DNA from: Octopus vulgaris
Lineage: Eukaryota
Direction of reading: 5' to 3'
DNA length: 64,000 nt
NCBI GenBank assembly: GCA_951406725.2
Contig: OX597824.1
Coordinates: 50,220,001 to 50,284,000, forward strand
Both the position numbers and the translations under genes were made by a program. The notes under the pieces are model-generated. The model searched no databases. It saw only the letters and a list, made by a program, of their open reading frames with translations, and was not told the DNA's origin. Within the stretch, counting starts at the first letter, position 1. Every line of letters starts with the position of its first letter. Shown here in pieces: positions 683 through 56,043 of this stretch.

Positions 683-3600
683 ATACATACATATGTCTAC
701 TCCTTATGCAGAGTTCGACCGCCTCCTGTACCTACACCTTAGCACCATAATGGCATCAAATGTGGCTTTTTAAACAAATGTTCTGAAAAGACATCCACAC
801 AGATTGCGCATCCGATTTGGACCACCAAGAGCTGCAGATAAATTCTGATCTGTGTGGATCTTAAAATGTCTTTCGAGGCATCCGTTGGATTTGCAAACCT
901 TCTGGCATACACTACATTTAAAGGTGTGCACAGACATATAGTCACAATAGTTGGTTGAGGTTCGTTTTCCATGCGCTCGTAGATGAGATTTGAGGCCAGA
1001 TAAATGGTCTATCACAGATTGTGCACACAAAAAGTTCATTGTCATTCAGCTTCTCTATCGTTACATTGTTCCTTAGATCTCTTTTGAGTCTTACATGCGT
1101 TATCCTGGCCTCTTCAAATGCTTCCACTCCACTCCACATTTTTGTTCGCCATCCGACTCGATCCGAAGCAAGGGTTCCTATGTCTACTGGATCTATTCCA
1201 AGTGACTTCATAATGGTCCTTATGCCGTCCTTAAACCTTTTTTGTTAGGATTACGCCGATAGCGTTTCCCGTCTGTAAGCTCACCATAAAACAGCTGTTT
1301 CGGCATGCGTTCATCTCATTCGATTCCTTAAAATCATAGATTTAATTGTCGCGATGCTTGCAGATGAAAAGAGATCTGTGTGTGAAGTTTAAGAAATCCA
1401 TTTAATTTTTAAAATGCGATGAAGGCATTTTTGGTGGAATTCTTCTAACAATTTGAAATACCTTTCATAACATGTACAAGTTTCACAGGAATACGATAGA
1501 GATGGAAAGACAAATGATTTGTAAAGAGTCAGCTTTGTATTCTTATTTATATGTCGCTGGCACCAAACGCGTGACTCCAAGCTACCAAATGCTTTTGCTG
1601 CCCTTTGAATTCGCACCTGTCTTTCTGTATCAAAATTTCCATAATTTTGAACAGAGCTTCAAAGGTAGATGAATGAATCGACAATCTCAAGTAACTTTCC
1701 CTTCACAAAAATTTTAGTGTGGTTACAAACAGCACCACACGCAGGTTGATGCATTACAACTGTTTTTTTTTTCAAGTTGATGGTCAAGCCAAAATGAACA
1801 CAAGCCGATTCAAATGCAGATACAAAAAACTGCAGACCTGTTTCAGAATGACTAACAAGATCGCAATCCTCAGCGAACAAAAGTTCCCTGAGTGAAGTAA
1901 AAACCTTCGTTTTAGATTTCAGTCTGGTCAGATTAAAAACATTCCCTGTTGTTCGATATTTTATGTAAATAACCCCCTCAGAGATTTTAAAAGCATGTGA
2001 CAACACAACAACAAAGTATATTGCAGAGAGGGTGGGTGTCTCAAGGTCTCGTGGCTTTACTCCATTTTCCACAGCAAAAGATTCAGAGAGCCTACCACTA
2101 AAATTAACTCTAGCTTTTATATCTTGATGCAAAGCCCTGACCATGTTTACAAATTTTTCTGGGAAACCTATTTTCCTTAGAATTAGCTACAGAGCATTTC
2201 GATTAATAGTATCGAATGCTTTTCTCAAATAAACAAATTAACAAAGCAATGATATAGGGAAAGATTCTGTTCAATACAATCAACTGTGACCCTGGAGGAA
2301 CGAAAACCACACTGAAACTCAGACACTATATTGGAATTATAAAGGTATTTAAACGTCTTAACAAAATGCGGGCATGTACTTTTCCCACCACAGACAAAAG
2401 CGAAATCCCACGAAAATTACCACACAGATCTTATGGCCCCGATTTATACGAGGAGACTAAAATGGCATCAATCCAGTCTTGAGGTACTTTCTCAGTTCTC
2501 CAACAGTGACAAATAAATATATTTAAGTGTTCAAACATTTTGTCACCCCCATATTTGAAGACTTTTGCACAGATTCCATCAGACCCCGGAGACTTATTGT
2601 TATTCAGCGTATTCATAGCTAAATAAATGTTATTTAGAGTTGGTTCAAGTGCCATATCTTCTATAAGTGGAAGGTGTCCGATTTTTTCTATAGTCCTCAC
2701 GTCAGCGAATGATGGTCTATTCAAAAGTGCAGAAAAATTAGAAGCGGTGTCAGTCAGAAGCAAACGTTCATTTGTTGTTGTGACTGAAGAAGAGTTTGGG
2801 CCATATACCTCATTAACATAAGAATACAAACCCTTGGCATCATTTCTATCAGCTGCTTCTTGTGCCCCTTTTGCTCTATCATTCCACCATTCCTGTTTAA
2901 TTTTCCTCAGAGCAGTCTGCACTTTCCTTTTCAGGTTTCTGAAAGTAGTGTATTGCCTAAGTTTTGTTTTTCTAAAAGTAGATCATAAATTTCTGCTGAT
3001 CTATCTGAGAACCAACCACTGAACTTATGTGATTTAAACCCCACTAACGAACTTGCAACCTGAAATACCTTTGCTTTGAAATCTTCCCATAGATTGTTTG
3101 GGTCAAGATTGATACTTTCTGTAGCATCGTGGAATCTTTGCAAGTTGCTTGATAATTTAAAGTTTGCAATATTAAACTTTTTTGGGTACCTTAGGACCAG
3201 TTTGTCGATTTTTAGGCATTATCAAAAAATCTATTTTCCCACGCATTAGATGATGGTCAGTCCACCTTTCTGCCCCTCTCATAGCCCGAACACTAGAACG
3301 TCTTTCACATCACGTTCCCTGATCAGAATATAATCTATGAGATGCCAGTGCTTATATCTCGGGTGCATCCAGGTTGTTTGATATTTATTTTTCTGCTTAA
3401 ACAGAGTGTTGGTGACAATCAGATTATTCTCAGTACAAAACATCAAAAGATCTACTCCATTTTTATTACATTTTCCAACACCATTTCGACCTAAAGCAGG
3501 CCATGAAACATAGTCCTTTCCAACTCTTGCATTGAAATCTACCAGTATGACCAGCTTGTCAGAAATTGATACTTTTCTCAATAATAGTGCTAGATCATCA

Positions 3601-4480
3601 TAAAACTGTCCTACAGTTTCATTAGAATGGGTCATTGTTGGTGCATGAATACTGACAACGATAAGAAACCTACCATTTGTCAGTTTAATACGGCATGACA
3701 TGGTTCATTCAGATATACACTTGCTCTGCAATGGAGGATACTAATGTTTTCTTGAGAGCAAACCTAACGCCAGATTCTCTACGCCGACCCTTAGGTAGGC
3801 CTCTCCAAAAGGTAGTATGTCCATTAGTAGGTTCATTTACTTGACCTTCACTAGAGATACGAGTTTCAGAGAGCACAATTATATCAAGGCAATATTTCTT
3901 AAGTTCACATGCAATAAGTGTAGTATGCCTTTCTGGCCTCTTGTTGAAATTATCATCTAAAAGTGTGCGTACATTTCAACAGCCAAAATTCAAAGGATGT
4001 TTATTTTTACTTTTTCTTGAAGATTGTTTGACCACAGTGGCAGGATGACGGCCGGTTCCAGCCTGTGATACACTGGGACACATGCCGAGCCAGACTTGTT
4101 CCTCTGACGTTGCCAAGCCTTTTTTGCCATTTAATGAATCTGAGACATTATAGAGCAAGTTACAAGTGCATTTTTAGGTTTCTGCCAGCCAGCCAATTCA
4201 ATGATTTTACTAAGATTCAGAGTACAGGAAGCACCTGTGCAGATGAATAATTTTCAGTGGGTGTAGCTAGCACTGCACTACCCCCACCTATTGGCCCAAA
4301 AGACTTTCGTCGGTGTGACTTGAAAATTGACAAAACCAGGAACTTCCAAGGCCTCGGGTTTTATTTCGGAGATTTCCTTCTCCTAGGTAAATTACCAACC
4401 AAGGTTAAAAAGCTTCTATCTGCCCATGTGGTAAGCTATCCCACTCCGGACACCAAACCGACACTCAGACACTCTATAAA
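683..4480 (-). mobile_element. Decayed near-full-length RTE-clade (BovB-like) non-LTR retrotransposon: 5' UTR, APE endonuclease, RT, C-terminal C2H2 fingers
   Basis: Minus-strand frameshifted pieces: NVRTLL..RPERHTTLIACELKKYCLDIIVLSETR (~3970-3860); SIHAPT..LVDFNARVG..TTWMHPRYKHWHLIDYIL (3279-3701); KSPGSDGI (2431-2922); ELLFAEDCDL, FGLTINLKK (1659-2144); CSVCQKVCKSNGCLERHFKIH (770-1045). Many stops and frameshifts. Confidence 0.9.
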
Positions 4481-7136: not shown

Positions 7137-7678
7137 TTTAATGTAGGCTAAAATTTTTTCGAAAGAAAAAATTTTTTATCAATGGCCAGCATATTAAAAA
7201 ATACCTTTAAAGGTTAAAATTATAAACAACTTATAAATAAGAGCAAACGAAAAAATTTCTAATGCCAAATATGCCGAAATTGGACATATTGTCCATAACC
7301 ATGTAATTTTTCATAATACGCACGTTACTCGAAAAAAGGTCGACAGAAATGTCTATAAAATTCCATTATTACCATATCGGACCGATTTGAGGGTTAGTTC
7401 ATAAGAAATAAATGAGATACTTACTCATATCCATGGGTATGAGTAAGTATCTCATTTATTTCTTTGCCACATTTATTACTGACGAAGGGAGGGTTCTTAT
7501 GAACTAACCCTCAAATCGGTCCGATATGGTAATAATGAAATTTTTTAGAAATTTCTGTCGACCTTTTTTCGAGTAGCGTGCGTATTATGAAAAAGTATAT
7601 GGTTATGGACAATATGTCCAATTTCGGCATATTTGGCATTAGAAATTTTTTCGTTTGCCCTTATTTATAAGTTGTTTG
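7137..7678. repeat. Fold-back element: ~180-bp inverted arms with an internal ~60-bp near-perfect hairpin and a degenerate hammerhead-like motif
   Basis: 7224-7405 is the reverse complement of ~7494-7678. Hairpin at 7403-7464. CTGACGA-AGGG..CCCT-cAAATCGGTC at 7479-7521. Confidence 0.85.
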
Positions 7679-7727: not shown

Positions 7728-9300
7728 GTGGTAACGAGGATTTAAGCAATTCATGAGGACAACGATTTAAACAACTCACGATGGATTAATAAAATCGACG
7801 AAGATAAGCCAATTCACGTGGAGTTAATAGAAACTCGAAGAGGAGTTAATAAACTTACAAAGTTAGTGTACGAATTTTGCGAAAAATCGTAAAAGTATGG
7901 AAAATTTGTTGGCAGGTTTGCTCAAGTTGCAAAAACTGCAACTGCAGCAGATACAATAGAGCAACGACAACAAATGCTGCAATTAATGAAGTCGTCAGGA
8001 AATTCAGAAAAAATATTCTCGCCAGACTATGTTGCGAACTCCATTTCAGTGTTCAAATATGAACCAGACGAAGGAGCTGCCTAGGTGGCATACTACAGAA
8101 GATATGAGCAAATATTCGATAAAGAATGTAAAGATTGGGACGACGAGATGAAAACGCGCTTAATCTTGAGAAAACTGGTGGCAACAGAACATGACAGATA
8201 CAGTAATTACGTACTTCCAAGAAAACTTTCTGACAAATTTTAATGACACAATAGATATATTCTGTAAAGTTTTCAGTGGAAAAAGCTCTATTGCTTAACA
8301 CGTTGGAAGTGTCTGAACATAGAGAAAAACAACGACGAGAACTACATCACATTTACTGGTAGAGTCAACAGGGAATGCAAGAGGTGTAAGCTGAATGAAT
8401 TAACGCCAGATATGTTCAAATGCTTGATTTTTATACAAGGACTTATTGCTGAAAAGGACGCAGAAGTTAGAACTAGAATTCTCGCAAAGCTGGAACAAAA
8501 CCATGATGTAACCCTACAGCAAGTGTCAGAAGAATGTGAAAGGATAGTCAAATTAAGACATCACACAGAGGAAATCGAGTGGAAAGATTGTTTTCAAGTA
8601 AAACACGTGCGAAATAGTCAGAATAGGGATAAATGTTTCCTAAAACACGCGACAAAAAATCAAGAAATAAACCCATATTTTGCATGTGGAGGTATACACG
8701 TGAAAAAAAATGACCATTTAAGAAAGTGGATTGCTTTCATTGTGGTAATATCGGACATATAAAGAAGTACTGTAGAACGAAAATGATAAAATGTCAGAAT
8801 AAAGGAGAAAGAATAAATACTATATCATCGGAAGAAATTGGCAACATAACGACGAGGAAATTCGTGAAGGTGAAAATCAGAAATGCAAGTGTTAAAATGC
8901 AGTTGGACATTGGTAGTGATATCACCATTATAAAAAGAAGAAAAAAATCTTGGAAATATGTCAGTAAGCCGAAATTAATTAAATCTAAAAAGGTAGCACA
9001 TGGTTTTACGAGAAAAAAAATTATTTTTTCGGTGAATTCGTATGTAGTGTAACATATCGCGGTCAAACGTAATGTGTTAAAAAAGTTCATTTGATTTATT
9101 CGGCACAGAGTGGATGGAAGTATTCAAGGTAGGAAATACGCCCATAAGTGTTTTGTGTGGAAATATAGTCGGTTCAGTGGAAGGTTCGAATGCAGCAGAG
9201 TGACTGAAATAAAAAAATTGCAGTAAAACAGAGTTTACGATAAAAAGTAAACATTGTTCAAAAGTAGATGTTTCGTGATCCAGACTACACATCGACTACA
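7728..9300 (+). mobile_element. Degenerate, internally deleted Ty3/Gypsy (Mag-like) LTR retrotransposon: PBS-like site, gag, zinc knuckle, protease, start of integrase
   Basis: tggtaacgagg PBS-like site at ~7728. Gag PDMFKCLIFIQGL..VRTRILAKLEQ (8412-8762); CFHCGNIGHIKKYC; protease MQLDIGSDITII (8726-9052); SRLHIDY integrase-like motif at ~9278-9299. RT/RNase H not seen; LTR pair not resolved. Confidence 0.8.
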
Positions 9301-15632: not shown

Positions 15633-16406
15633 AGGCGGTGAGCTGACAGAATTGTAAGCACAGTGGGCGAAATACTTAGCGTCTTTCTTTACGTTCTGAG
15701 TTCAAATTCCGCCGAGGTCGACTTTACCTTTCGTCCTTTCGGGGTCAATAAATTAAGTACCTATTGAGCACTGGGGTCGATTTAATCTTACCCGAAATTG
15801 CTGGCCTTGTGATAAAATTTGAAACCAATATCAATAATATGAATAAGGTGGCGAGCTGGCAGAATTGTTAGCACGCCGGGCAAAATGCTTCAGAGTTCAA
15901 ATTCCGCCGAGGCCGACTTTGCCTCTCATTCTTCGACGTAACATCTCCCTGGAAATTGCTGGCCTTGTGCCAGAATTCGAAATCAATATTAATACTACGA
16001 ATATTACTATGAGTAAGACGGCGAGCTGGCAGAATCGTTAGCACGCCGGGCGAAATGCGTAGCCGTATTTCATCTGCCGTTACGTTCTGAGTTCAAATTC
16101 CGCCGAGGTCGACTTTGCCTTCCATCCTTTCGGGGTCGATTAAATAAGTACCAGTTACGCACTGGGGTCGATATAATCGACTTGATCCGTTTGTCTGTCC
16201 TTGTTTGTCCTCTTTGTGTTTAGCCCCTTGTGGGTAGTAAAGAAATAGGTACTTCGTCTGCCGCTACGTTCTGAGTTCAAATTCCGCCGAGGTCGACTTT
16301 GCCTTTCATAATTTCGGAGTCGATAAATTAAGTTCCAGTTGCGTACTGGGGTCGATCTAATCGACTAGCTCCCTCCCCCAAAATTTCGGGCCTTGTGTCA
16401 AGAGTA
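15633..16406 (+). mobile_element. Cluster of tandem tRNA-derived SINE family B copies; the last is a dimeric insertion with a 17-bp TSD
   Basis: Repeated ggcgagctggcagaa..gagttcaaattccgccgaggtcgactttgcctt..cggggtcgat at ~15633, 15846 and 16016, plus a headless monomer at ~16250. TSD gaatattactatgagta at 15999-16015 and 16407-16423. Confidence 0.9.
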
Positions 16407-21088: not shown

Positions 21089-21502
21089 TACTTTGCTTTC
21101 TTCTTTCTTATTCGTGTGTCTCTCCCTACTAAAGATCAGCCATTTTGTATTTTGTATTCCTATTGTATGTGTCTTCATTTGCGCATGCGTATACCTCTAT
21201 GTGTGTCTATGTTTAGTTAGTGTGTGTGTGTGGGGGGGAGTGCCTGTAATATTTGTATCTCCTGTTTATATACGTTTGTGTAATTTGTTTTTGTTTTTGT
21301 TTTTTTCTATTTTGTTCGTGTGTTTACACCTACTCATTAAAGGAAAAGTTATCAAACTAATCCAAAAATTGATCAATCCAAAATTATCTTAATTATTTTA
21401 TGAATTTTTAGTCAGTCTGCTTTCCCACTTTCAACCTGTGTATACATGTGGAGTGAATATCTGAAGTGGTTGGACGTGCATATATATATATATATATATA
21501 CA

Positions 21503-22065
21503 CAATAAAAGCAGCTTTAGTGTAATAAATATTATTAACTAAATATGCTTAATGTGTATGCTTTGTGTATATTCCGGTGGCTGCAATAGCATGGAGGAGT
21601 ATATATACTCTCAAACTGCTGGGTGTAGAGCACCTCAGTCATGGACAGGTAAGATAACCAGAAAATACACAAAGCATATACATTAAGTATATGCAGTAAT
21701 AATATTTATTATACTAGAGCTGCTTTTATTTGATACATAAATGTTCTCTTAGATATGCAGTTTCTGAGCATTCCAGCTCATGATTTAACAAGCCATGAAC
21801 ATGATTTTACAAGCCATGAGCATGATTTTACAAGCCGTGGATTAGCTGGGTCACATGCCTTCAATCCAGGCGGGTAGGTGATGTTGACAAGCCACAAAAA
21901 TGGCGAAACACCCGGTGTCCATTACCCTCAACTAGGATTGAAGGTGGGTTATCTTGCCTCCCCATGTCCGAGGTGTTTTACACTCGTCGGTTTAAAAGTA
22001 TATATACTACACCACGCTATTTCAACCACAGGAAAATTCACAAAGCGTATACATTAAGTATACGT

Positions 22066-22075
<10 letters not shown>
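21503..22075. repeat. Nested fold-back element containing a hammerhead and a 3x21-bp tandem repeat
   Basis: 21503-21575 is inverted at 21657-21731, and 21530-21660 is inverted at ~21946-22075. catgattttacaagccatga(a/g)-type unit x3 at 21779-21841. Confidence 0.85.
21857..21945 (+). ncRNA. Extended type I hammerhead ribozyme with a U3-A8 variant core
   Basis: GCCUUCAAUCC..GGUGAUG UUGACAA GCCA CAAAAA UGGC GAAA CAC CCG GUG UC CAUUACC..GGAUUGAAGGU. All three stems pair; GUC triplet at 21917-21919. Confidence 0.8.
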
Positions 22076-22152
<77 letters not shown>

Positions 22153-22701
22153 TAATATTAATAATAATAATGATAATAAAATATAATATATAATATAAGC
22201 TTTAGTCCACTCAACTAGACTCAACAACATTCTTTAGTACGCTCTCAGATTTTCATAAAGATAAAATATGTATATCCGAATATGGTATCTGCTATTTCTT
22301 TCATGAAGTCTTCTGTAATAATAATAGTTTTGTTGTACACTTCTCGCACTGAGGAGAACAGCGTTATATAATTGATTTAATTTAATCAAATTCTATTCAT
22401 TCTCCCATGTTTTTTACATGTTAATATCGCTGTTTGAAACGATCGTATGCATGTATTAAAATTCTTTCAAATTTTAACATCTCTTCTCCATTTTTAACAT
22501 ATTTGTTGTGTTTCTATGGGATATCTTTCCTTAAATTCTCACAACACCCCATATACATGGAATAATTTCATATTCGCAAAAATCTTACGCCATTAAGGTA
22601 CCAGCAAAATATGAAGAATCTTTGTTAGAAATTGCCCTTTGGAACCCCACAAAATAAAGGATGAAATATAATGTAACCTTTTCACGCACACACACACACA
22701 T

Positions 22702-32734: not shown

Positions 32735-32960
32735 ATAGTAATTGATGCACTTGAAAGTATCCGCACTCAACTACCAACATGGCTCAAAAAGATTGGTGCA
32801 AATATAAAGATAGAACACCTACAAAAATCAGCATTGCGTGGCACTGCAAGATTTCTTTGCAGGGTTTTTGAAGCATGACCAGTTAACAAGTGTCACCTTA
32901 TTCTGCTGGCTGTGGAAAGCTGACACTTTCCAATATACCCAACAAAATAAACTTCATCAA
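32735..32960 (+). mobile_element. Extreme 3' fragment of a Dong/R4-type LINE
   Basis: VIDALESI..IKIEHLQKSALRGTARFLCRVFEA* followed by a short UTR, between TAA-type repeats. Confidence 0.75.
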
Positions 32961-33018
32961 ATAACAACTACAAGAATAACACAGCAGCAGCAGCAGCAAC
33001 AACACCACCATACTAATA

Positions 33019-34048
<1,030 letters not shown>

Positions 34049-34620: not shown

Positions 34621-34633
34621 TAATAATAATAAC

Positions 34634-35997
34634 GTTACAAGGAAAGCTTGTCAGGGCAGAAGGCAAGTGGTGAAATGATGACGGCAACTGAATCTGAATC
34701 TGGATATAAATACCTGGGAATACTCGAGGTAGATGGAGTTAAGCACAGCAATATGAAAGAAAAGACAAAGAAAGAGTATCTGCGTACCCGAGAAAAAAAA
34801 CTGGATTCAAAGCTGATTGCCAGAAACATAACTTCGGCAATAAACTCGCACGTAATCGTAATAGTTTGGGTGTGGCACGGAAATTCTGAAGTGGACAGAG
34901 GTGAAGCTAAAAGAGATGGAGAAGAAGATAAGAAAACTCTTAACGATGCAAGGAGCCCATCATCCACGTGCTATCACTGCTCGCCTATACATGGAGAGAA
35001 TAAATGGAGGAGGGGAATTGATAAGTATGGAAGACCGAGTACGCATCGGACTCGGGAGCTTACTGAGATACCTAGCCCAATGTAAGGAAACCTTGCAAGT
35101 GTCGGTTAGGAAGGAGGGCGTATTAAGAATAGAGAAACAGGGAAAAACAAAGCAAGAAGTACAAAAAGGAGATCGAGAAGCATTACGAAACAAGGAAGTA
35201 CGCGATCGATTCCATGTAGTCACAACTGGAGTTGTTAGAAAAGAGGTGGGACCGGCTGAAGGAAGAAACACTAAAAAGAGACTGAGTGCACAAGACCAAG
35301 CTTTGGCCACGAACTGGATGGTCAACTTTGCAATGAGCAAGTGTCTCTACTATTCCACATCTGTATTAGAGTGGACGAAACCATTGCCCATATCGTGATC
35401 GAATGCCTTAGACTTGCCCAAAACCATTGCTGCTTGTGGCAACACGATGAGTCAGTGAGTGTGTTGCACTGGAAACTGCGAAAAGTGGGTTGAAGAGAGA
35501 GGCAAGACGTTGTATGAGCACAAGCCGCAGAGAGTGGCGGAGTCGGAGACCTGCAAAATCCCGTGGGATATCCCAATCCAAACAGATCAGATGCTGAAGC
35601 ACAACAAACCGGACATAGTGGTGGTGGACAGTGTGCATCACATATGCTATATAGATGATGTTGCTTGCCCATTTGCCCCACGAATAGAAAAGAAGGAAGG
35701 TGAAAAAATAGATACATAGAATCCTCTTAAGTACGAAATACCCTGGATATGAAAAATGAAGAAGGTGAATATATGCCATTTATTATTGGGTCCTTGGGGA
35801 CAGTATTAGAGGAATATAAAAGAAATCCGAATAGAGTGCCCAGTAGAACTGTTACAAAAGGTTTGCTTTCTTGTCACAGCCAGAATAGTCAGGAAAGTAA
35901 TCGAAAGTTGAAAAGAACAGATAGCATGGTAACGTAGGCTGCAGGCTGCGAGCCCGCTACACATGCAAGACCCCAGGAGTTCCAACAAAACCTCAGT

Positions 35998-36402: not shown

Positions 36403-36494
<92 letters not shown>

Positions 36495-36673
36495 TGATGA
36501 CGACGACGACGACGACGATGACGATGACGACGACGACGACGATGACGATGACGATGATGATGATAATGATGATGAAGATGATGATGATAATAATAATAAT
36601 AATAATAATAAATGCCTTGATGTAGTACTGCGCTCGGTAGTGAAGTGAAAGCATGCTATAAAAATAAAACTAG

Positions 36674-36755
<82 letters not shown>

Positions 36756-36870
36756 TGATGACGACGACGACGACGACGATGACGATGACGACGACGACGA
36801 CGATGACGATGACGATGATGATGATAATGATGATGAAGATGATGATGATAATAATAATAATAATAATAAT

Positions 36871-37437
36871 AAATGCCTTGATGTAGTACCAGGCAGTGGC
36901 TCTGGTGGCTTCTGATCATAAATGATTGGAAGTGTTATCATGTACATTGTTTTATCTTGGTATGAAAGACGGGCTACAGCAAATATTCTGCTCAATACCA
37001 CAGATTTGCTTGTCAGTTGTTTGACCGTAACCACTTGAGGCACGTCCCTTAGTGGCTGACGATATGTGCATTTATGATCACGAGCAGAAGTAGTGGGGGT
37101 GGGGAGAATCATAGCCATGTGTTGAGAGGAATTCGTTGTGGTTTGGATAATTCACCTTCGGAAAAATGGGTGTTTTGTTCAACATCTTTAAACAACCCTT
37201 ATTCAGGGACCTTTTGAGCGAGATGGGCTACTCGACTTGAAGAAAATTCTAACTGGGCCCCACCTGCAAGGTCATGCACTGTTTATCTTGATATGAGATC
37301 ACCATGTCGCGCACATATGGTTGTGATGCATGTGCCTGGTGCACTCTCATCAGACTGGTAGCCATGGCATCAATACTGGGCTTCGTATATTTTATCCCAG
37401 TATCACTTTGATGACATGCACTGCTCTCTCACTCAAT
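36871..37437. mobile_element. Second full copy of the 560-bp TAA-associated non-coding element
   Basis: Aligns end to end with 34063-34620. Confidence 0.85.
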
Positions 37438-41997: not shown

Positions 41998-42001
<4 letters not shown>

Positions 42002-44889
42002 CCTGATTTTACTGAGTTAAATGAAATTATTTACGCTTCTGCTAGGGCAATTGAAACCAGCTGTATGCCCCCGAAAAAACAAAGAAAACAAAACCTGGGA
42101 AGAAATCAAACCTGGAGAAGTAAAATTGAAAAAGAGATTGAATTTATGAGAGGGGAAATATCAATATTAAATGAACTAATATGTGGAAATGATGTAAGAT
42201 CCAGAACAGGAAGAAAGATGAAGAGAAAATTTGGATCCTCACCAAGAGAAGAACTGATATCAATAAAAGAAACGCTGAAACAAAAAGTCCAAGCAAAAGC
42301 CCAAAGAATACGAAGATTTGAGAAGAGAAACAAGTTTTACAAGCAAAATAAGCTGTTCACATCCAATGCCAAAATATTCTACAGAGAAATAGGGAAGGAG
42401 AAAGTAACCGTTAAAGACCCCCCTCCCATGGAAGAAGTTCAAAACTTTTGGGAAAGGATTTGGAGTGACAAGAAGACGTACAACATAAATGCAGACTGGA
42501 TTATACAAACTGAAGGATCCTACCAAAATTTACAACAACAAGCATGGGAAGACATCACAATAGCAGACCTAAGAAAGGCACTCACGAAGGCCCATAATTG
42601 GAAATCCCCCGGTAAAGATAGGGTGCCGAATTTCTGGCTCGCATCGCTCCCGTGCGCACACGGTAAGCTAGTTCAGCTGCTCAATGGAATTTTGAGAGAC
42701 CCAAAGAAAACACCTGAATGGTTAGCAAGTGGCATTACTTACCTACTCCCAAAGAATAACGAAACCAACCTTCCAAAAAACTATCGGCCTATAACCTGTC
42801 TATCCACCACGTATAAAATCCTAACATCTATCCTGGCGGAGAAAACATATGCATTCATGGAGAAGAACGATATTTTCCCCATTGAACAAAAAGGGTGCCG
42901 CCGAGGCTCTTACGGATGCAAAGATCAACTGCTAATCAATCGTATGATCCTTGAGAACTGTCACAACAAGCGCAGAAATCTCAGCACCGCATGGATTGAC
43001 TATAAAAAGGCCTTCGACAGTATACCGCATCCATGGATCTTGAGATCGCTGGACATCTTTAAAATTTCCCCTGTGATTTCAAACTTCCTGTAGCACAATA
43101 TGTCGTTGTGGAATACGAATCTCCAATTATACCACTCTAATGGAGTACTTGCCTCAGAAAATATAAACATCAACTGTGGAATTTTTCAAGGTGACTCACT
43201 TTCACCTTTAATATTCTGCATAGCCCTAATACCCCTTACAAGTGAATTAAACAGAACAGGGTATGGGTATAAAATTGCCAATAAAAAAATAAGCCATCTA
43301 TTTTATATGGATGACTTAAAACTTTATGGTAAAGACAATAATGAACTTGAAGGCCTATTGCGCACCGTGAAAGCATTCAGCGATGACATCGGGATGGAGT
43401 TTGGACTTGAGAAATGTGCCAAGGCCACTTTCCAGAAAGGGAAAGTGAAGACCACAAATTCAGTCGTGTTAGATATTGACACAGTCATAAGAGAGCTTGA
43501 GCAAGAACAGACATACAAATATTTAGGGATAAATGAAGGCTCTGGTATTCAGCATGCAAGCATGAAAGAGAAAATCAGGAAGGAATGTTATAGGAGAGTT
43601 CGTGCAGTCCTGAAATCTGAACTAAATGCACGTAACAAGGTGTTAGCTATAAATTCCTTAGCAGTTCCAGTTGTTACTTATAGCTACAATGTGTTGAACT
43701 GGAATATGAGTGAAGTAAAGAATATAGATAGAAAAATACGCAAGCTGCTGAGTTGTAATAGGATGCACCACCCAAAGGCAGACGTAGATCGCCTTTACCT
43801 TCCCAGAGCCCAAGGAGGTCGAGGCCTGATCCAATTTGAACTAGCTTACAAAACAACCACAATTGGACTGGCCAAATATCTCGAAATATCGAATGACTGG
43901 ATGCTAAAGCTCGTGGAAAATCATGAGAGACGAAAGAAGCTTCATTCTATCATCAAGGAAAGCAAAAAATTTGCTATTGATCTCGTGCAGGATACCCAAA
44001 CTGAACAACCCGAGGGAAGTACGGCAACTATTGTTGCAAAGAAGGTGAAAATGATGGCAATGAAAAAAGCGCACGAGCAATTGGCTGATAGGTGGGAGGA
44101 GAAACCTCTGCACGGCAAATATGTGACCCGCAGCAAACAAGCTGATGTTGACCAGAAGCAAACCCATCAGTGGCTGCGGAGCTCAGGGCTAAAAGCAGAG
44201 AGCGAAGGTTTCATCCTGGCTGCTCAAGACCAAAGCCTATTAACCCGGAACTACCAGGCCAATGTGATGAAAAATGGAGCAGACCCAAAATGCCGATTCT
44301 GCAACGACATGATTGAAACAGTGGACCACTTAATCTCTGGATGTAAAGTCTTAGCACCAGTGGAGTATAAATTAAGACATGACAGAGTTGGCCAATATCT
44401 CCACTGGCTAATAAGTCGGCATTACAATATCAAAACTGCCGACAAGTGGTATAATCACCACCCTGATGCTGTAACTGAAGGAGAAAATGTAACCATTCTG
44501 TGGGACTTTCCAGTACATACAGACAGAACCATCAAGGCCAATAAACCAGATATTGTTGTGAAAGACCAAAACAATAAAGTTTGCTTATTGATCGACATGA
44601 GCATCCCCTGTGATCATAATATCTCAGCGAAAGAGTTTGACAAGCTCAGAAAATATAAAGACCTACTCATTGAAATTGAGAAAATGTGGCATCTCAAGGC
44701 GGTTACAATACCAGTGATCGTAGGAGCACTAGGAATGATCAAGAAGGGAACCGAAAATTATATGAGAATGATCCCTGGCTTACCATCCCTGCAAGAAGTG
44801 CAAAAGATTGTCTTAACTGGTACATCACACGTACTGAGAAGAGCATTGTCGATGTGAGAACTGTTGCTGCTCATGTATTTTAATTTAAC

Positions 44890-45395: not shown

Positions 45396-45505
<110 letters not shown>

Positions 45506-45537
45506 TTGAGTTGTGGGGTATCGCACGAGTGGGATTA

Positions 45538-46290
45538 TATATGAAAAAAGGTTTGAAAATGCAATTTAAACGATGTTTATTTACTTAACCGGTTTCACTC
45601 TTTGGTAAAATATTGTCAAAAGTAACATTGAATATTATGGGTTCAAAAAAGTTTTTTACATAATTGTCACATTGAATATTATGAATTCAAAAATGTTTTT
45701 TTATACATAATTGTCACATTACATGTATAAATATAGTATAAAAAAGTTCAATAGTGTGATGAGAATATTTGGAAAAATTGGCAGAAAAGAATAAAACAAA
45801 TATATTATTGGAAATTTGGTTGCGTTAATTATTGGTTGTCGCAAATTGTCACATTACATGTATATATATACAGTCTTTGGTAGAAAGGACATGTTAAAGA
45901 CATAAGGAAGTGTAATAGTTTGGTGAGAAAGCTTGTAATATTGACAGAGAAAATTAAAATGGATATTTTAGACATCTCAGAATATTTTGAATCGAAGGCG
46001 AGAATTTGTTTTTTACTGACCTGTTTGTTTTAGCATTGTATGTATGTATATTGTGTGTATATGTGGTATATCTATGTATGTGTATGTAAACACTATTTAT
46101 ATGTATATATGTATATATGTATATGCATTGTCTATATATATATATATTATATGTATGTATTGCGTATGTATATTGCATGCATATATTGTGTATGTGTATT
46201 ATATACATGCTGTGTATGTGTATTGTATGTGTATATATATGCTAGGTGTATTTGTGTGATATTTATATTATGTATATATGTGTGCGTGTG

Positions 46291-46343
<53 letters not shown>

Positions 46344-47170
46344 GTGTGTGTATGTGTTATATGTGTGTATATTATATATAAATACATGTTATATTTGTGT
46401 GCTGTGTGTATATATTATATATGTGGGTGCGTTGTGTGTGTGTGTGTTCTGTGTGTGTGTTGTGTGTGTTTGTATACTATGTGTGTGTGTGTATTGTTGT
46501 TGTGTGTGTGTGTATATATGTGTGTGACAAACAGACGCTGTCTGACCAGCAGGCACACGGACACATCTATTCACACCCGCATACTCACCTCCCAATAACC
46601 CCAAAATCACTGATGCTTGAAGGGGAAGTATAAACCAAACTGGGTACATATCTTTTTTCTCTCAATTCAACTTTTCTGCTAAAACAAACAGGTCAGTAAA
46701 AAACAAATTCTCGCCTTCGACTCAAAATATTCTGAGATGTCTAAAATATCCATTTTAATTTTCTCTGTCAATATTACAAGCTTTCTCACCAAACTATTAC
46801 ACTTCCTTATGTCTTTAACATGTCCTTTCTACCAAAGACTGTATATATATACATGTAATGTGACAATTTGCGACAACCAATAATTAACGCAACCAAATTT
46901 CCAATAATATATTTGTTTTATTCTTTTCTGCCAATTTTTCCAAATATTCTCATCACACTATTGAACTTTTTTATACTATATTTATACATGTAATGTGACA
47001 ATTATGTATAAAAAAACATTTTTGAATTCATAATATTCAATGTGACAATTATGTAAAAAACTTTTTTTGAACCCATAATATTCAATGTTACTTTTGACAA
47101 TCTTTTACCAAAGTGTGAAACCGGTTAAGTAAATAAACATCGTTTAAATTGCATTTTCAAACCTTTTTTC

Positions 47171-47175
<5 letters not shown>
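45538..47175. repeat. Long inverted repeat: ~500-bp nearly identical arms (45538-46035 and 46677-47175) around a (TG/TA)-rich spacer
   Basis: The arms are reverse complements with few mismatches; each carries TTGACAA..GAAACCGGTT. Confidence 0.95.
47088..47132 (+). ncRNA. Hammerhead-like motif with U3-A8 core and GUU triplet; mirror copy at ~45581-45625 (-)
   Basis: UUACUU UUGACAA UCUUU UACC AAAG(U/A) GU GAAA CCGG UU AAGUAA. Perfect 6-bp stem I and palindromic stem III; irregular stem II junction. Confidence 0.5.
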
Positions 47176-48567: not shown

Positions 48568-50569
48568 TGTTTCTTTATTAGCCACACAGGGCTGCACACA
48601 GATAGAACAAATTACAAGGTAGAGCTTTTCTTTTGAAGGTAAAAAAAAAAAAAGGAGGGGGAGTTTCGATCAAAAGGGATCATAAAAGGAGAGAAAGAGG
48701 ACAAAAAAAGGGGGGGTAAAAAAAGGGGGAGAGGAAAAAAAGATCAATAGGGATCGTTATCACAGAAATGTCAAGATGAAGTGTAAAGGGGAGGACAGGT
48801 GAGGTTTACCCGTGGAAAGAAAAGCCTACGGAAAAGACCACGGTAACGTCGGTCAATAATGTCACATGTTATATTTCTTTTTTTTTTTTTTTTGCAAATA
48901 AGCAACTCTCTGTATTAATTTTTATGGTTCATAGAATCATAGTCAAGGTGGCTTCATCATTCATACGTGCCATCCTTGCTACATTCACCCATCTTTTTTT
49001 AAACATTCACTAGACAAAACTTGCCTCTCTACTCTCACTTTCCTCTTCAAGTGATACTTGAAGAAGTTGATGAGAGATTGACCAGAGAGGAAAGTGTTTG
49101 TCTCTAATCCTTTCAGGCGCGTCCACCAGATACATTCTTTCGCCATAGCCACAAGTATGATAAAAATAGCTCTTCCTTCCCGTTTGAAAGAAGGAGGCGT
49201 GACGATATTAACGATAGACTCGGCTGATAAACCGACACGTCCCACACGTGACAGCAGTCGTTCGACATAAGTCCACAGGTCGGAAATTGCTGGACACTGC
49301 ACGATTGCGTGCAGAGCGGTTTCGTCGCTCTGCCCGCATCTCGGGCAGGTCGGCCCCGTGTTTCTCGAGCCATGCCTATAGAGCTTATCCCGAACGGGTA
49401 GCGCTTCTCGGTAGCACCGCCAGGCCAGGGATCTCTGGAAGTTGTCCATAGGTCCCGGGCCGAAAGTCGTTTGAAACAGGCGGGTCAGGTATTCCTCGTC
49501 GACGCCCAGGTTCGCCCCGAGCTCGTCGTCGTACCTCCCCTCCACTAATCCCCTATAGAATGCTTTGGTTGTGTTGAAGTCGCTCAAGGTCGACCCGGGA
49601 CGGCAGAGTTGCTTGAGAGCAACGCGACACTCGCGGTGCCATTCGCCCTTCCTCGGCCTCTTTTTGATCCACGACTGTAGTTCGGTCATGGAGACGAGTT
49701 GCGGGAATGCGTGCCTCACAAACGGCGACCACACCTGTTCACCGTCGTCTACATAGAGCCGGAGATGTCGCAGTCTCAGCGCGTGTCTGCGCATCATCAA
49801 CCACGGCATGCCCAGCCCTCCTTTTAACGGGTGTTGACAGCAAATGGATCGCCTGACCATCGGGACGCATCCTTTCCACAAGAAGCGGAAGAGGATGCGT
49901 TCTAGTTTGGTGATGGTAGGGTCGGGACAAGGTACGACGGTCAGGCGGTAGTAGATGATGGACACGATGTACGCGTTCACCACCTCCGCCCGACCTTTTA
50001 GGGACAGTTTCCTCTCGGCCCATTGCTGGGCGAGAGTGACCACCCTACTCGTTATCTCGTTCCAGTTCTTCTCCATTTGGAGGTCCGGACCGAACCAGAC
50101 CCCGAGCAACTCAACCGGGCCGTCTGTCCAGCGTCCCACGACGGAGGTACTGGTGGACGGCATGGGCTTGCTTCTCCAGGTGCCGAGCCGCAAGCCCACT
50201 GACTTTTCCCGGTTGATTTTTGCTCCTGTCACCGCTTCGTAGTCTTTCAGTGTCTCGCCGACCCGCTCGATGTGCTCGTGGCTTGACACTATGACGGTGA
50301 CGTCGTCCGCGTATGCAGACACGCTCGTCCCGCATCCCAATTCTCGCGGGATGCCCCTTAGAGTCGCCAGCTTCCGCAGTAGTGGCTCAAGAGTCAATAC
50401 GTATAGAAGCGCCGAGAGGGGGCATCCCTGACGGACCGAACGTGCAATGTCGAAAGGTCTCGATAGATGTCCATTTACGCGAATTACCGAACGGATGCCT
50501 CCGTACAAGGCAGCTATCCAGCCGCGGAAGACGGGACCGAAACCAGCCGCTCTCAGGACTGCCTCCAAG
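48568..50569 (-). mobile_element. 5'-truncated Tx1/L1-clade LINE inserted in (GATA)n
   Basis: Flanked by (GATA)n on both sides; ORF2 3' part plus ~370-bp 3' UTR ending gccctgtgtggctaataaagaaac. Confidence 0.93.
48985..50568 (-). CDS. Tx1-like ORF2 fragment (RT C-terminal half + CCHC), uninterrupted for 527 aa; no real start codon
   Basis: [61 protein letters not shown]. Confidence 0.88.
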
Positions 50570-50626
50570 TATAGAGAGATAGATAAATAGATAGATAGAT
50601 AGATAGATAGACAGACGGACAGATAT

Positions 50627-50755
<129 letters not shown>

Positions 50756-50809
50756 CAGACACACAGACAGACAGATAGTTAGATAGATAAATAAATAGGT
50801 AGATAGATT

Positions 50810-50889
<80 letters not shown>

Positions 50890-53012
50890 TGTTTCTTTAT
50901 TAGCCATACAGGACTGAGCACGGAGGGGACAAATTACAAAGTAGAGCTTTTCTTTTTGGGGAGAAAAAAAGGGCGGGGTAGGTCTTCGATCGAAAGGGTT
51001 CGTAAAAAAAAACGATTAATAGGGATCGTGTATCACAGAAATGTCATGATGTAAGGTGTAATGGGAGAAACAGATAAGGTTTATCCGTTGAAAGAAAAGC
51101 CTTCGGAAAAGACCACGCTAACCTCGGTCAATAATGTCACATGTTAACACATTTATTTGCAAGTAACTCACTGTTTTAAATTTTTCCGGGTTCATAGATT
51201 TATGCTCAAGGCGGCTTCGTCATTCATACGTGCCATCCTTGCTACATTCACCCATCATTTTTTTGAAACATTCACTAGACAAAACTTCCTTCTCTACTCT
51301 CACTTTCCTTTCCAAGTGATACTTGAAAACGTTGATGAGAGATTGACCAGAGAAAGTGTTTGTCTCTAATCCTTTCAGACGCGTCCACCAGATACATTCT
51401 TTCGCCATAGCTACAAGTATGATGAAAATAGCTCTTCCTTCCCGTTTGAAGGAAGGAGGCGTGACGATATTGACGATAAACCGACTCGTCCCACACGTGA
51501 CAGCAGTCGTTCGACATAAGCCCAGAGGTCGGAAATGGTTGGACACTGCCCGAGTGCGTGCAGAACAGTTTCGTCACTCTGGCCGCATCTCGGGCAGGTC
51601 GGCCCGGTGTTTCTCGAGCCGTGTCTGTAGAGAATATTCCGAACGGGTAACGCTTCTCGGTAGCACTGCCAGGCCAGGGATCGCTGGAAGTTGTCCATAG
51701 CTCCCAGCCCAAAAGTCCTCTTGAACAGGTGGGTCAGGTATTCCTCGTCGACGCCCAGGTTCGCCCCGAGATCGTCGTCATACCTCCCCTCCACTAATCC
51801 CCTATAAAATGCTTTGGTTGTGTTGAAGTCGCTCAAGGTCGACCCGGGACGGCATAGTTGCTTGAGAGCAACTCGACACTCGCGGTGCCATTCGCCCTTC
51901 CTCGGCCTCTTTTTGATCCACGACTGCAGTTCGGTCATGGAGACGAGCTGCGGGAATGCGTGCCTCACAAACGGTGACCACACCTGTTCACCGTCTACGT
52001 AGAGTCGGAGGTGTCGCAGTCCCAGCGCGTGCCTGCGCATCATCAACCACGGCATGCCCATCCCTCCTTTTAACGGGTGTTGACAGCAAATGGATGGCCT
52101 GACCATCGTGACGCATCCTTTCCACAAGAAGCGGAAAAGAATGCGTTCTAGTTTGGTGATGGTAGGGTCGGGACAAGGCACGACGGTCAGGCGGTAGTAG
52201 ATGACGGACGCGATGTACGTGTTCGCCACCTCCGCCCGACCTTTTAGGGACAGTTTCCTCTCGGCTTATTGCTGGGCGAGAGTGACCACCCTACTCGTTA
52301 TCTCATTCCAGTTCTCCAAACCAGACCCCGAGCAACTCGACCGGACCGTCGGTTCAGCGTCCCACGACGGAGTCACTGGTAGAGGGCATGGGCTTGCTTC
52401 TCCAGGTGCCGAGCCACAAGCCCACTGACTTTTCCCGGTTGATTTTCGCTCCTGTTACCGCTTCGTAGTCTTTCAGTGTCTCGCTGACCAGCTCGATTTG
52501 CTCGTGGCTAGACACTATGACGGTGACGTCGTTCGCGTATGCAGACACGCCCATCCCGCATCCTAATTCTCTCGATGCCCCTCAGAGTCGCCAGTTTCCG
52601 CAGTAGTGGCTCGAGAGTCAATACGTATAGAAGTGACGATAGGGGACATCCCTGACGGACCGAAAGTGCAATGTCGAAAGGTCTCGATAGTTGTCCATTT
52701 ACGCGAATTACCGAACGGATGCCTCTGTACAAAGCAGCTATCCAGCCGCGGAAGACGGGACCGAAACCAGCCGCTCTGAAGACAGCCTCCAAATATCGAT
52801 GGTCTACGTTATCGAAAGCTTTCGATTGATCCAAATTGATCAGGGCCCCACCCATGTCAGGTTCTTTAACTACCCTGTCTATGATGGAGCGCATCAAATG
52901 GAGGTTGTCAGGAATGCTCCTTGTCGACCAGTTTCTCGATGACAAGCGCCAACCTCTTGGCTAACACCATGGCAAAAATTTTCAAGTCTGCATTAAGCAG
53001 AATGATGGGCCT
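50890..53012 (-). mobile_element. Second, more decayed copy of the same Tx1 family in (GATA)n
   Basis: Begins at [15 protein letters not shown]; [21 protein letters not shown]; frameshifts; same 3' end motif; (GATA)n flanks. Confidence 0.93.
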
Positions 53013-53325: not shown

Positions 53326-53327
<2 letters not shown>

Positions 53328-53499
53328 TTCTTTACTACCCACAAGGGGCTAAACACAGAGGGGACAAACAAGGACAGACAAAGCGATTAAGTCGATTCCA
53401 TCGACCCCAGTGCGTAACTGGTACTTAATTTATCGACCCCAAAAGGATGAAAAGCAAAGTCGACCTCGGCGGAATTTGAACTCAGAACGTAACGGCAGA
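53326..53499 (-). mobile_element. 5'-truncated SINE family B monomer with a Tx1-like tail, in (GATA)n
   Basis: Reverse complement of 16072-16247; flanked by (GATA)n on both sides. Confidence 0.88.
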
Positions 53500-53500
53500 T

Positions 53501-53573
<73 letters not shown>

Positions 53574-54557: not shown

Positions 54558-54707
54558 AGTAATAGGGTTGGTATGTGAAAGTACGTGGTTGGATGTATAA
54601 AAGACAAAATAGAGTGAAAAACTTCAAACGACTTGAGTAATACAGTTAAAGTACATATTTAAGTCGTTATGTTAGAAAAATGTTCTAAAATTTTGTATAT
54701 AGTAACA

Positions 54708-56043
54708 TTGTTTTTGGAGAAATAACCGGTTTCGTATTTTCTTTTCAAATTTCTTTACCGATATTGTGTCATCTCTTCGCTATGATGTGATGCAATTTAA
54801 TATGATTTAGTTGAATCATAGTGAATCTTTCATTGGCTGAAAAATGTGGTCGACCAAATTGCACAACATACCCAAAACTTCTAGAAGGATCATAATTTCT
54901 TTTTAAAGAGGGACAAAAATTCAAAATCAAATCTGACTTTACTTTTGCCTCAGTAAACTTGATTTTTGCTATAAGATGCTCGGGCTGCCACCAAAATTAC
55001 AGATATTGTTATATTCCGAAGTCGTCAATAGAGTGGTTCTATCTGGCACTGCACGAACCCCAGTCGTACAGTGCTGTTATCCTCAAAAGATTGGATCGTT
55101 ATAATGTCCGCTGAGTATCGCAGTATGGTTATTATATCAACAGAGACACGACTATCAACACAGTCTACACGTACTCTCGACCCACTACCTGTCGACCGGC
55201 TACTGGTTCATTTATAACGGCTGGCTACTACCATTTTTTACCGGGAGAGGTGTACAGTTTCACTATACAACACTCTCTTTGGCCTTATATTTCCTCGATC
55301 AAAGCTAACTTGAAACAACAATAATGCAAACAAATAACCATCATATAGACACCTGTCATGTTTCTTCTTTACATGTATTTTATCTCTAAATAAACTGCTG
55401 CACTTTTCATTCTCTTTTAGATATATCGTATCTCTGACTTCAATCTGCATTGCTTCTGTTAATTCTTACAAGCCTTTAACTTACTCTTGCTTCATTTTAT
55501 ATCCCAAGTATACCTCAATTTTCTCTCAATTGTGGAGCTCACTGTGTCATCTGTACCTCATTTCTGACTACTCACGTTTATTCGTCTACAACTCATTCCT
55601 GTTTCCGCCCTCGAGTCTACCTCAATTCACTTTCAACCCTGCCTTTCACTTCGCATCATATGTACCTCAACTCTGATTACATCTGTTTCAAGCCATACTC
55701 GTCTCTCACCTACTCTTATTTTATTTCTAATACAGTTTTATTTTCGGTTCAACTTCACATTGATCCCTCTCTGGTTTGGCATTTCTTCGTTCTTCTTCGG
55801 TCGCGTTGCTTTTGTGGATTCTCATGACTCTTTGGCGCCATCCAATTCCATTTTTGTGAATTTGAATTAAGTGAATCTTTCATTGACTGATTACACACTT
55901 GTTTTTGGAGAATTAACCGGTTTCGTATTTTCTTTTCAAATTTATCAAATTCCTTTACCGATATTGTGTCATCTCTTCGCTATGGTGTGATGCAATTTAA
56001 TATGATTTAGTTGAATCATAGTGAATCTTTCATTGGCTGAAAA
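54708..56043. repeat. Pair of ~135-145-bp direct repeats (54708-54843 and 55899-56043) flanking ~1.05 kb
   Basis: ttgtttttggagaa..aaccggtttcg..gtgaatctttcattggctgaaaa occurs twice; the left copy lacks 9 nt. Confidence 0.9.

Follow-up and report, generated by a model that had tools for sequence, protein, structure and literature searches.

The window, a stretch of 64,000 nucleotides of the Octopus vulgaris genome (G000:C11:50220001-50284000), contains a type I hammerhead motif at 21857-21945 on the plus strand. It possesses three helices, and stems II and III are closed. Its parts are as follows:

21857-21867 (+): 5' strand of the 11-bp distal helix extending stem I, partner of 21935-21945
21872-21883 (+): 5' strand of stem I including the loop segment (GGG, UAC loop and 6-bp helix in the family; UAG in the window copy)
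GGUGAUG 21877-21883 and CAUUACC 21920-21926 (+): stem I helix as read in the window copy, 7 bp with one G·U
21884-21890 (+): catalytic core UUGACAA with U3 at 21884 and A8 at 21889
21891-21894 and 21901-21904 (+): stem II, GCCA/UGGC, 4 bp with G10.1-C11.1; loop CAAAAA as in the Rfam HH9 consensus
21905-21907 (+): GAA between stem II and stem III
21908-21911 and 21915-21918 (+): stem III, ACAC/GUGU, 4 bp with a CCG loop
21919 (+): C17 of the GUC triplet; predicted cut after 21919, from established hammerhead numbering
21920-21929 (+): 3' strand of stem I, with C at position 1.7 (21926), while 70 of 79 family copies have U
21935-21945 (+): 3' strand of the distal helix, partner of 21857-21867

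The UUGACAA core, the 4-bp stem II with G10.1-C11.1, the 4-bp stem III, the GUC triplet and the 11-bp distal helix had all been named in a preliminary description of this DNA and were read in the same way here. The motif also displays the remaining bases of a type I core (U4, G5 and A6, A9, G12, A13 and A14, A15.1-U16.1, H17), and positions 3 and 8 of the window copy form a Watson-Crick pair, U3-A8. The same description had assigned seven pairs and an internal loop to stem I. The seven pairs do exist in the window copy, but in the family stem I has only 6 bp, after which come a UAC/U loop and a helix of 3 bp; where the family has this loop, the window copy has its seventh pair, C21926 with G21877. 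The window copy thus lacks the unpaired U1.7 of the loop I/loop II tertiary motif, a nucleotide that is reported to make a Hoogsteen contact with loop II and that was not essential in the minimal ribozyme of the paper reporting this contact (PMC11875169). Hence, the proposed affiliation with the fast natural hammerheads could not be upheld for a copy which carries C in place of the family U1.7 and lies approximately 20% from the family majority. The window copy is predicted to cleave still in vitro, though probably more slowly than its source, because U1.7 has been lost.

The folding energy of 21857-21945 (z -3.45) was not equalled by any of 200 shuffles. In the minimum-energy fold the core pairs with GUGUC and stem III is missing. 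The hammerhead fold lies 0.4 kcal/mol above this minimum and accounts for about 10% of the ensemble; it was less favourable in four copies whose stem III is palindromic. A local Rfam scan gave Hammerhead_HH9 as best match (26.8 bits, E 8.4e-05), which is under the Rfam gathering score of 52 bits. Among the 150 of 257 matches listed for the whole window there was no hammerhead, most being microRNA families on microsatellites, and six family loci, a young C3-G8 array among them, yielded no Rfam match at gathering score. With positions 3 and 8 left free, the family pattern had 92 exact matches in the genome (2.8 Gb, 227 contigs), the reversed control none. On account of the fold, the HH9 E value and these pattern counts we concluded that the motif has not arisen by chance.

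The hammerhead resides in a tandem element bounded by microsatellites, a host that the preliminary description had not recognized:

21480-21500: (TA)n microsatellite bordering the inverted arm on the outside
21504-21658 (-): inverted arm, a unit copy truncated at its 5' end and standing back to back with the direct array
21657-21716 (+): 3' part of the preceding unit in the head-to-tail array, direct repeat of 22032-22088 with an offset of 371
21717-22088 (+): one full, ORF-less retrozyme-like unit of 371 nt (family majority 345 nt)
21779-21839 (+): local 21-nt tandem repeat in about three copies, absent from the other aligned copies
22070-22170: (AAT)n microsatellite at the 3' end of the direct array

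A DNA search of the genome gave 251 candidates, 40 of which were scored, at 73-84% identity, and another query for the family gave 728. Head-to-tail offsets were 327-343 nt in five other loci, compared to 371 in the window and a majority unit of 345 nt. More than one unit was detected in 36 of 60 distinct loci, with a near-dimer in L126; the arrays are short, mostly below two units. There is no frame of at least 130 aa over the element, and the frame for reverse transcriptase (RT) and GIY-YIG endonuclease by which autonomous Penelope-like elements are recognized is absent from the unit. Its GC content is 40-42% (majority unit 42%), and the majority unit, folded as a circle, reached a z of -7.8 (60 shuffles). 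The focal unit therefore combines the traits of metazoan non-LTR retrozymes: a head-to-tail monomer of 345 nt, a canonical type I hammerhead, no ORF, a GC content below 50% and a self-paired circle. A single contig, possibly derived from RNA, covers 21642-21870 and ends short of the cut site. The copies are old, differing from the majority by a median of 15% and in the window by 20% (figures from the 80 of 96 aligned rows that passed the coverage and divergence filters). Taken singly, the window copy is an ordinary fossil of the 345-nt family. A more diverged branch of the family (L031, L035, L039, L045 and L050) has a different distal helix and AGG/CCU for GGG/CCC; read depth suggests that it is more numerous than the branch of the window.

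Of special interest were the nucleotides at positions 3 and 8. A tally by hand of the 92 exact matches yielded 74 U-A, 13 C-A, one U-G and four U3 with U or C at position 8, and no C-G; 79 distinct aligned copies comprised 56 U-A, 16 C-A, 3 U-G and 4 others. C3-G8 as consensus was rejected, as it occurred in none of the exact matches and in only one of 13 matches with one mismatch, a decayed copy. Judging from these alignments, the U3-A8 pair of the window motif is the inherited consensus of its family and not private to this copy. The question raised beforehand, whether the family consensus might be C3-G8 with independent mutations in this copy, is thereby answered in favour of U3-A8 (74 of 92 against 0). 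The accompanying statement that U3-A8 variants can be active and yet escape standard descriptors is borne out by PMC3088659 and PMC4209133.

In 20 family copies 90.6% of the paired cells were occupied by pairs, compared to 32-45% for slid registers, and covariation within these copies was not above that of shuffles (80 of 500 reached the score). Core retention was 0.96 against 0.90 elsewhere in the copies, which had been found with queries containing the core. The mismatch C3·A8 occurred in 16 of 79 copies and was clustered on a tree that is weakly resolved, with only one starred branch and one copy entered twice (8 changes versus 15.9 in shuffles, 0 of 500). The C3·A8 copies were more frequent than the background of T-to-C change (25% versus 5.5%). 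As C3·A8 is both above background change and clustered, a subfamily with the mismatch seems to have spread.

The same core sequence UUGAYAA had been noticed at 47094 and 55942, where it was taken as an argument against chance decay. Both sites belong to Penelope-like elements of the window:

45501-47175: young Neptune-type Penelope-like element, inserted as a 5'-truncated, back-to-back inverted pair; only its minus arm has a tail, of about 40 nt
45619 (-) and 47094 (+): minimal U3-A8 motifs of this element, located in the two arms of one inverted insertion
54700-55960 (-): two 3'-end pieces of an older Penelope-like family
54839-55000 (+): GIY-YIG remnant in the older element
55942-55948 (-): minimal U3-A8 motif of the older family

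The core is indeed present at both sites, but these are minimal motifs with a weak helix II and without G10.1-C11.1, and they belong to two other repeat families unrelated to the focal unit. The conclusion drawn from the recurrence nevertheless survives, because U3-A8 is common to several families in the octopus genome. The 47094 family is young (1,664 candidates, 40 of them scored, at 99-100%). In its longer members, frames of 745 aa (L108) and 847 aa (L111) combine RT with a Cx4CxxC linker and a GIY-YIG-type end. RVT_1 was matched with E 1.1e-07, while Pfam made no endonuclease call and GIY-YIG was read from the sequence. By its linker the family fits Neptune or Nematis. An apparently full-length young Neptune-type element lies at L111:2435-6146 (-) (G000:C13:52242000-52251900); in L111, a 469-aa frame further upstream begins right after the 5' hammerhead copy and overlaps the 847-aa RT/endonuclease frame. 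In the older family the U3-A8 motif is situated about 450-600 nt downstream of the GIY-YIG remnant, and the motif copy near 54748 carries a 9-nt deletion. A duplication artefact at 55948 was ruled out by the presence of the U3-A8 core in the family and of the deletion in the copy near 54748.

The window contains further repeats. At 41999-44854 (+) a non-LTR retrotransposon is represented by two long, adjacent RT-like frames, one of 364 and one of 587 aa, with a stop between them; related fragments lie at 32814-33629 and 34633-35395. Other non-LTR retrotransposon frame fragments, interrupted by microsatellites, were found at 48988-52960 (-) and 1662-3704 (-), and a 164-aa frame at 8268-8759 (+) is retrotransposon-gag-like by eye. 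Inverted repeats occur at 7224-7677 (184 nt, 96%, 86 nt apart) and at 16070-16246 and 53326-53502 (177 nt, 93%, 37 kb apart), and a direct repeat of about 260 nt, consisting of AAT/GAT/GAC triplet runs, at 36447-36893.

To describe the insertions of the focal family, the ends of the copies were compared. Back-to-back inverted pairs were seen at 29 of 60 loci and the opposite arrangement at none. At 20 of the 29 inverted loci one arm ended at +170-206 and the other at +214-240, typically at 198 and 230, which gives a one-sided tail of about 32 nt. Microsatellite-like 3' flanks were found in 42 of 97 cases, compared to a background of 11.5%. The window copy exhibits the same anatomy, consisting of (TA)n, the inverted arm 21504-21658, the direct array 21657-22088 and (AAT)n; here the inverted arm has its 3' end at about +218 from the core and the direct arm at about +204, a tail difference of only 14 nt. 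Partial tandems, an inverted 5'-truncated copy, a tail of 30-40 bp at one end and microsatellite targets have been reported for insertions of Penelope-like elements (PMC8557442), and each of these marks was recovered in the focal family. The 47094 family showed its one-arm tail of about 40 nt in all seven inverted insertions examined, loci that were partly chosen for visible inverted pairs. The 3' end of one young Neptune element disclosed no sequence similarity to the focal unit. By analogy with the published insertions, those of the focal family look likely to have been made by Penelope-like (Neptune-type) enzymes. Because truncation occurs on its 5' side, the hammerhead strand was probably the RNA template; as the copies read through the cut site, this template may have been a circle or an uncleaved multimer, and copies of more than one unit fit both.

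Genome-wide counts were obtained with a pattern consisting of the core, 10-22 nt and GAAACCGGTH. It matched 8,935 U-A, 282 C-A, 181 U-G and 179 C-G motifs (controls: 62, 42, 24 and 32, respectively). The pattern does not match the focal family and takes no account of stems, and its counts are of copies, among which a few large families dominate; the first 100 rows of the listing comprised six or more types of sequence. U3-A8 is the majority form in the octopus genome among such hammerhead-like motifs as this one pattern counts. We also noticed high-copy U3-A8 types with stem II GUC...GAC and A at position 17, many in inverted pairs, and another repeated motif, mostly C3·A8 and sometimes C3-G8, in which the helix II region is very short.

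A second retrozyme family (855 pattern matches) has stem II GAGG/CCUC and a unit of 359-360 nt; its loci are L147 (G000:C1:20002278-20004542) and L148-L202. It was compared with the focal unit, but homology was dropped as there was no blastn match and the best profile match had an E of 0.63. Among its loci are young C3-G8 arrays, which reach 5.6 units with 95-99.5% identity. At 13 of 16 loci, partly chosen for visible pairs, inverted pairs were present, mostly in (TA)n, and in all 13 the arms ended near +211 and +257. U-A, U·G, C-G and C·A subfamilies all occur. Of the 31 loci with A8, 30 had U3 and one had C3, while nine G8 loci picked blind to position 3 comprised eight U3 and one C3. On a midpoint-rooted tree, 16 C3-G8 loci and the C-A locus formed a starred clade nested among U-A lineages. 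In this family the 3-8 pairing is mostly kept while the bases change, a pattern which favours function in this class of ribozymes.

Our reading of the locus, to which we assign a probability of roughly three in four, is that it contains a type I hammerhead with an inherited U3-A8 pair, located in an old, decaying copy of a 345-nt non-coding tandem of retrozyme type that was likely inserted by Penelope-like (Neptune-type) enzymes. The motif, the family consensus, the tandem unit, the absence of a coding frame and the insertion anatomy can be seen directly in the DNA; the course of events would have been as follows. Source copies would have been transcribed as multimers, which would have cut themselves after GUC, as dimers in the subfamilies with palindromic stem III and possibly as monomers in the subfamily of the window with its 4-bp stem III. 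The cut RNA would then have been closed into circles. A Penelope-like GIY-YIG endonuclease may have nicked a TA-rich microsatellite, and its reverse transcriptase would have begun some 160-200 nt beyond the cut site, within the AT-rich segment, and run over more than one unit. Such a course would have produced partial tandems together with an inverted second arm and a tail on one side.

An alternative that we regard as unlikely is that the ribozyme was weak or dead already in the source, U3 and A8 having resulted from AT-biased change, and that the element was propagated by uncleaved tandem transcripts in which the motif was carried along. G8 sits in a CpG when position 7 is C, the clustered C3·A8 subfamily (13 of 92) and the non-significant covariation within the family would suit such a course, and so would the minimal U3-A8 motifs of the two Neptune-like families with their poor helix II lacking G10.1-C11.1, as well as the tandem C3·A8 arrays that exist in the second family too. 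However, the other core bases, the three helices, the UAC/U loop and the loop CAAAAA are all intact in the majority sequence. Moreover, U3 accompanies A8 at 30 of 31 loci of the second family, G8 being found with U3 or C3, so that all pairing states are represented, and in the ACCGGT pattern the mismatch C-A (282) is rare beside U-A (8,935).

Considerably less probable is that the unit, instead of being an independent retrozyme, represents an orphan terminal repeat (pLTR) that once belonged to an autonomous Penelope-like element. The full Penelope-like insertion anatomy agrees with it, and hammerheads, including a U3-A8 variant, are known in pLTRs (PMC4209133). Upstream of the units, however, there is another unit or an inverted arm; a Neptune-like RT remnant was located near only one of 80 focal loci, beyond another repeat and a (TA)n run; and the published animal pLTR hammerheads are mostly minimal (PMC4209133), while the window motif is canonical. 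Very improbable, finally, is a recruitment of the window copy by the host in the manner of the conserved intronic HH9 of amniotes: although HH9 is its best Rfam match, although it is among the 10 of 79 copies with intact core and stems, and although it is covered by contigs from runs labelled as two other organisms, in which few positions differ (in X3, 5 substitutions and 11 gap bases within 21563-21922; in X6, 4 within 21737-21922), it lies about 20% from the family majority and has lost U1.7, the search itself picked well-formed motifs, no host gene was established, and a match so far under the gathering score reflects shared metazoan architecture.

The preferred reading, a retrozyme copy inserted by Penelope-like enzymes, was compared with known systems. 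Like the focal unit, the metazoan non-LTR retrozymes of coral, mussel and axolotl are non-coding tandems of 170-400 nt with a GC content below 50%, strongly self-paired and with one canonical type I hammerhead per unit (PMC7229834). The focal unit differs from them by its U3-A8 core and its short arrays, some published retrozymes occurring in long ones; furthermore, linear and circular RNA is described for the published retrozymes, whereas the focal unit is known here from genomic DNA. The inverted arm, the one-sided tail and the microsatellite flanks are apparently not described in PMC7229834, the main text of which mentions neither octopus nor cephalopods. Target-site duplications of metazoan retrozymes, when present, exceed 4 bp, whereas the flanks of the focal family are microsatellites. 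Rfam Hammerhead_HH9 (RF02275) shares the 6-bp stem I, the UAC-type internal loop, the 4-bp stem II and the loop CAAAAA; the focal motif departs from it by its score (26.8 bits versus gathering 52), by U3-A8 and by its location in a dispersed repeat. Neptune-type and non-autonomous Chlamys elements (PMC8557442) have the partial tandems, the inverted 5'-truncated copy, the 30-40 bp tail and the microsatellite targets in common with the focal family. Non-autonomous head-to-tail passengers are known from Chlamys and generally share the 3' ends of their partners, but the focal unit has no RT or endonuclease frame and no 3'-end similarity to the one autonomous element tested.

Natural covariation to U3-A8 was reported by Perreault et al. 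2011 (PMC3088659) in several examples, as was its activity in vitro, while here it is the consensus of several repeat families. Likewise, minimal U3-A8 hammerheads are tied to the Cercyon Penelope-like elements of Schistosoma, where a change of the descriptor gave about 1,300 matches and the standard descriptor about 2,000 hammerheads, more than the U3-A8 set (PMC4209133). The focal motif is canonical, with tertiary loops in an ORF-less unit, and the sites at 47094 and 55948 match the minimal Cercyon motifs more closely. Two of the three supplement files of PMC4209133 held no octopus, cephalopod, squid or U3-A8 match. For the giant squid genome, 235 hammerhead matches were published. A search of the literature on hammerheads and retrozymes with the terms octopus, cephalopods, Penelope, U3-A8 and C3U + G8A disclosed no description of the 345-nt family, although an earlier one is possible. 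The mobilizer of animal retrozymes was left open between LINEs and Penelope-like elements, a role of the latter being proposed, not shown (PMC7229834, PMC11722881).

The U3-A8 core alone is not new, having been published for Penelope-like elements and others. New here are its occurrence in a canonical retrozyme ribozyme, its dominance in this genome and the insertion marks of Penelope-like type, although part of this claim may already be covered by Lünse et al. 2017, who reportedly treated hammerhead variants of Penelope-like elements. Beyond the single locus we tentatively suggest, at slightly less than even odds, that the 3-8 pair flipped to U-A across the retrozymes and Penelope-like elements of this lineage, so that CUGANGA searches would miss most of their ribozymes; that within active retrozyme families the pair continues to change among U-A, U·G and C-G, the youngest canonical clade descending from U-A ancestors; and that the insertions are direct genomic evidence for the mobilization of animal retrozymes by Penelope-like enzymes without shared 3' ends. 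The counts of 8,935 and 179 indicate that standard descriptors can badly undercount hammerheads in some genomes. As a natural series, U-A, U·G, C-G and C·A members with nearly the same background offer a direct gauge of the cleavage needed for retrozyme spread. With two retrozyme families that bear Penelope-like marks beside an intact young Neptune-type element, the question of the mobilizer becomes testable by trans-mobilization.
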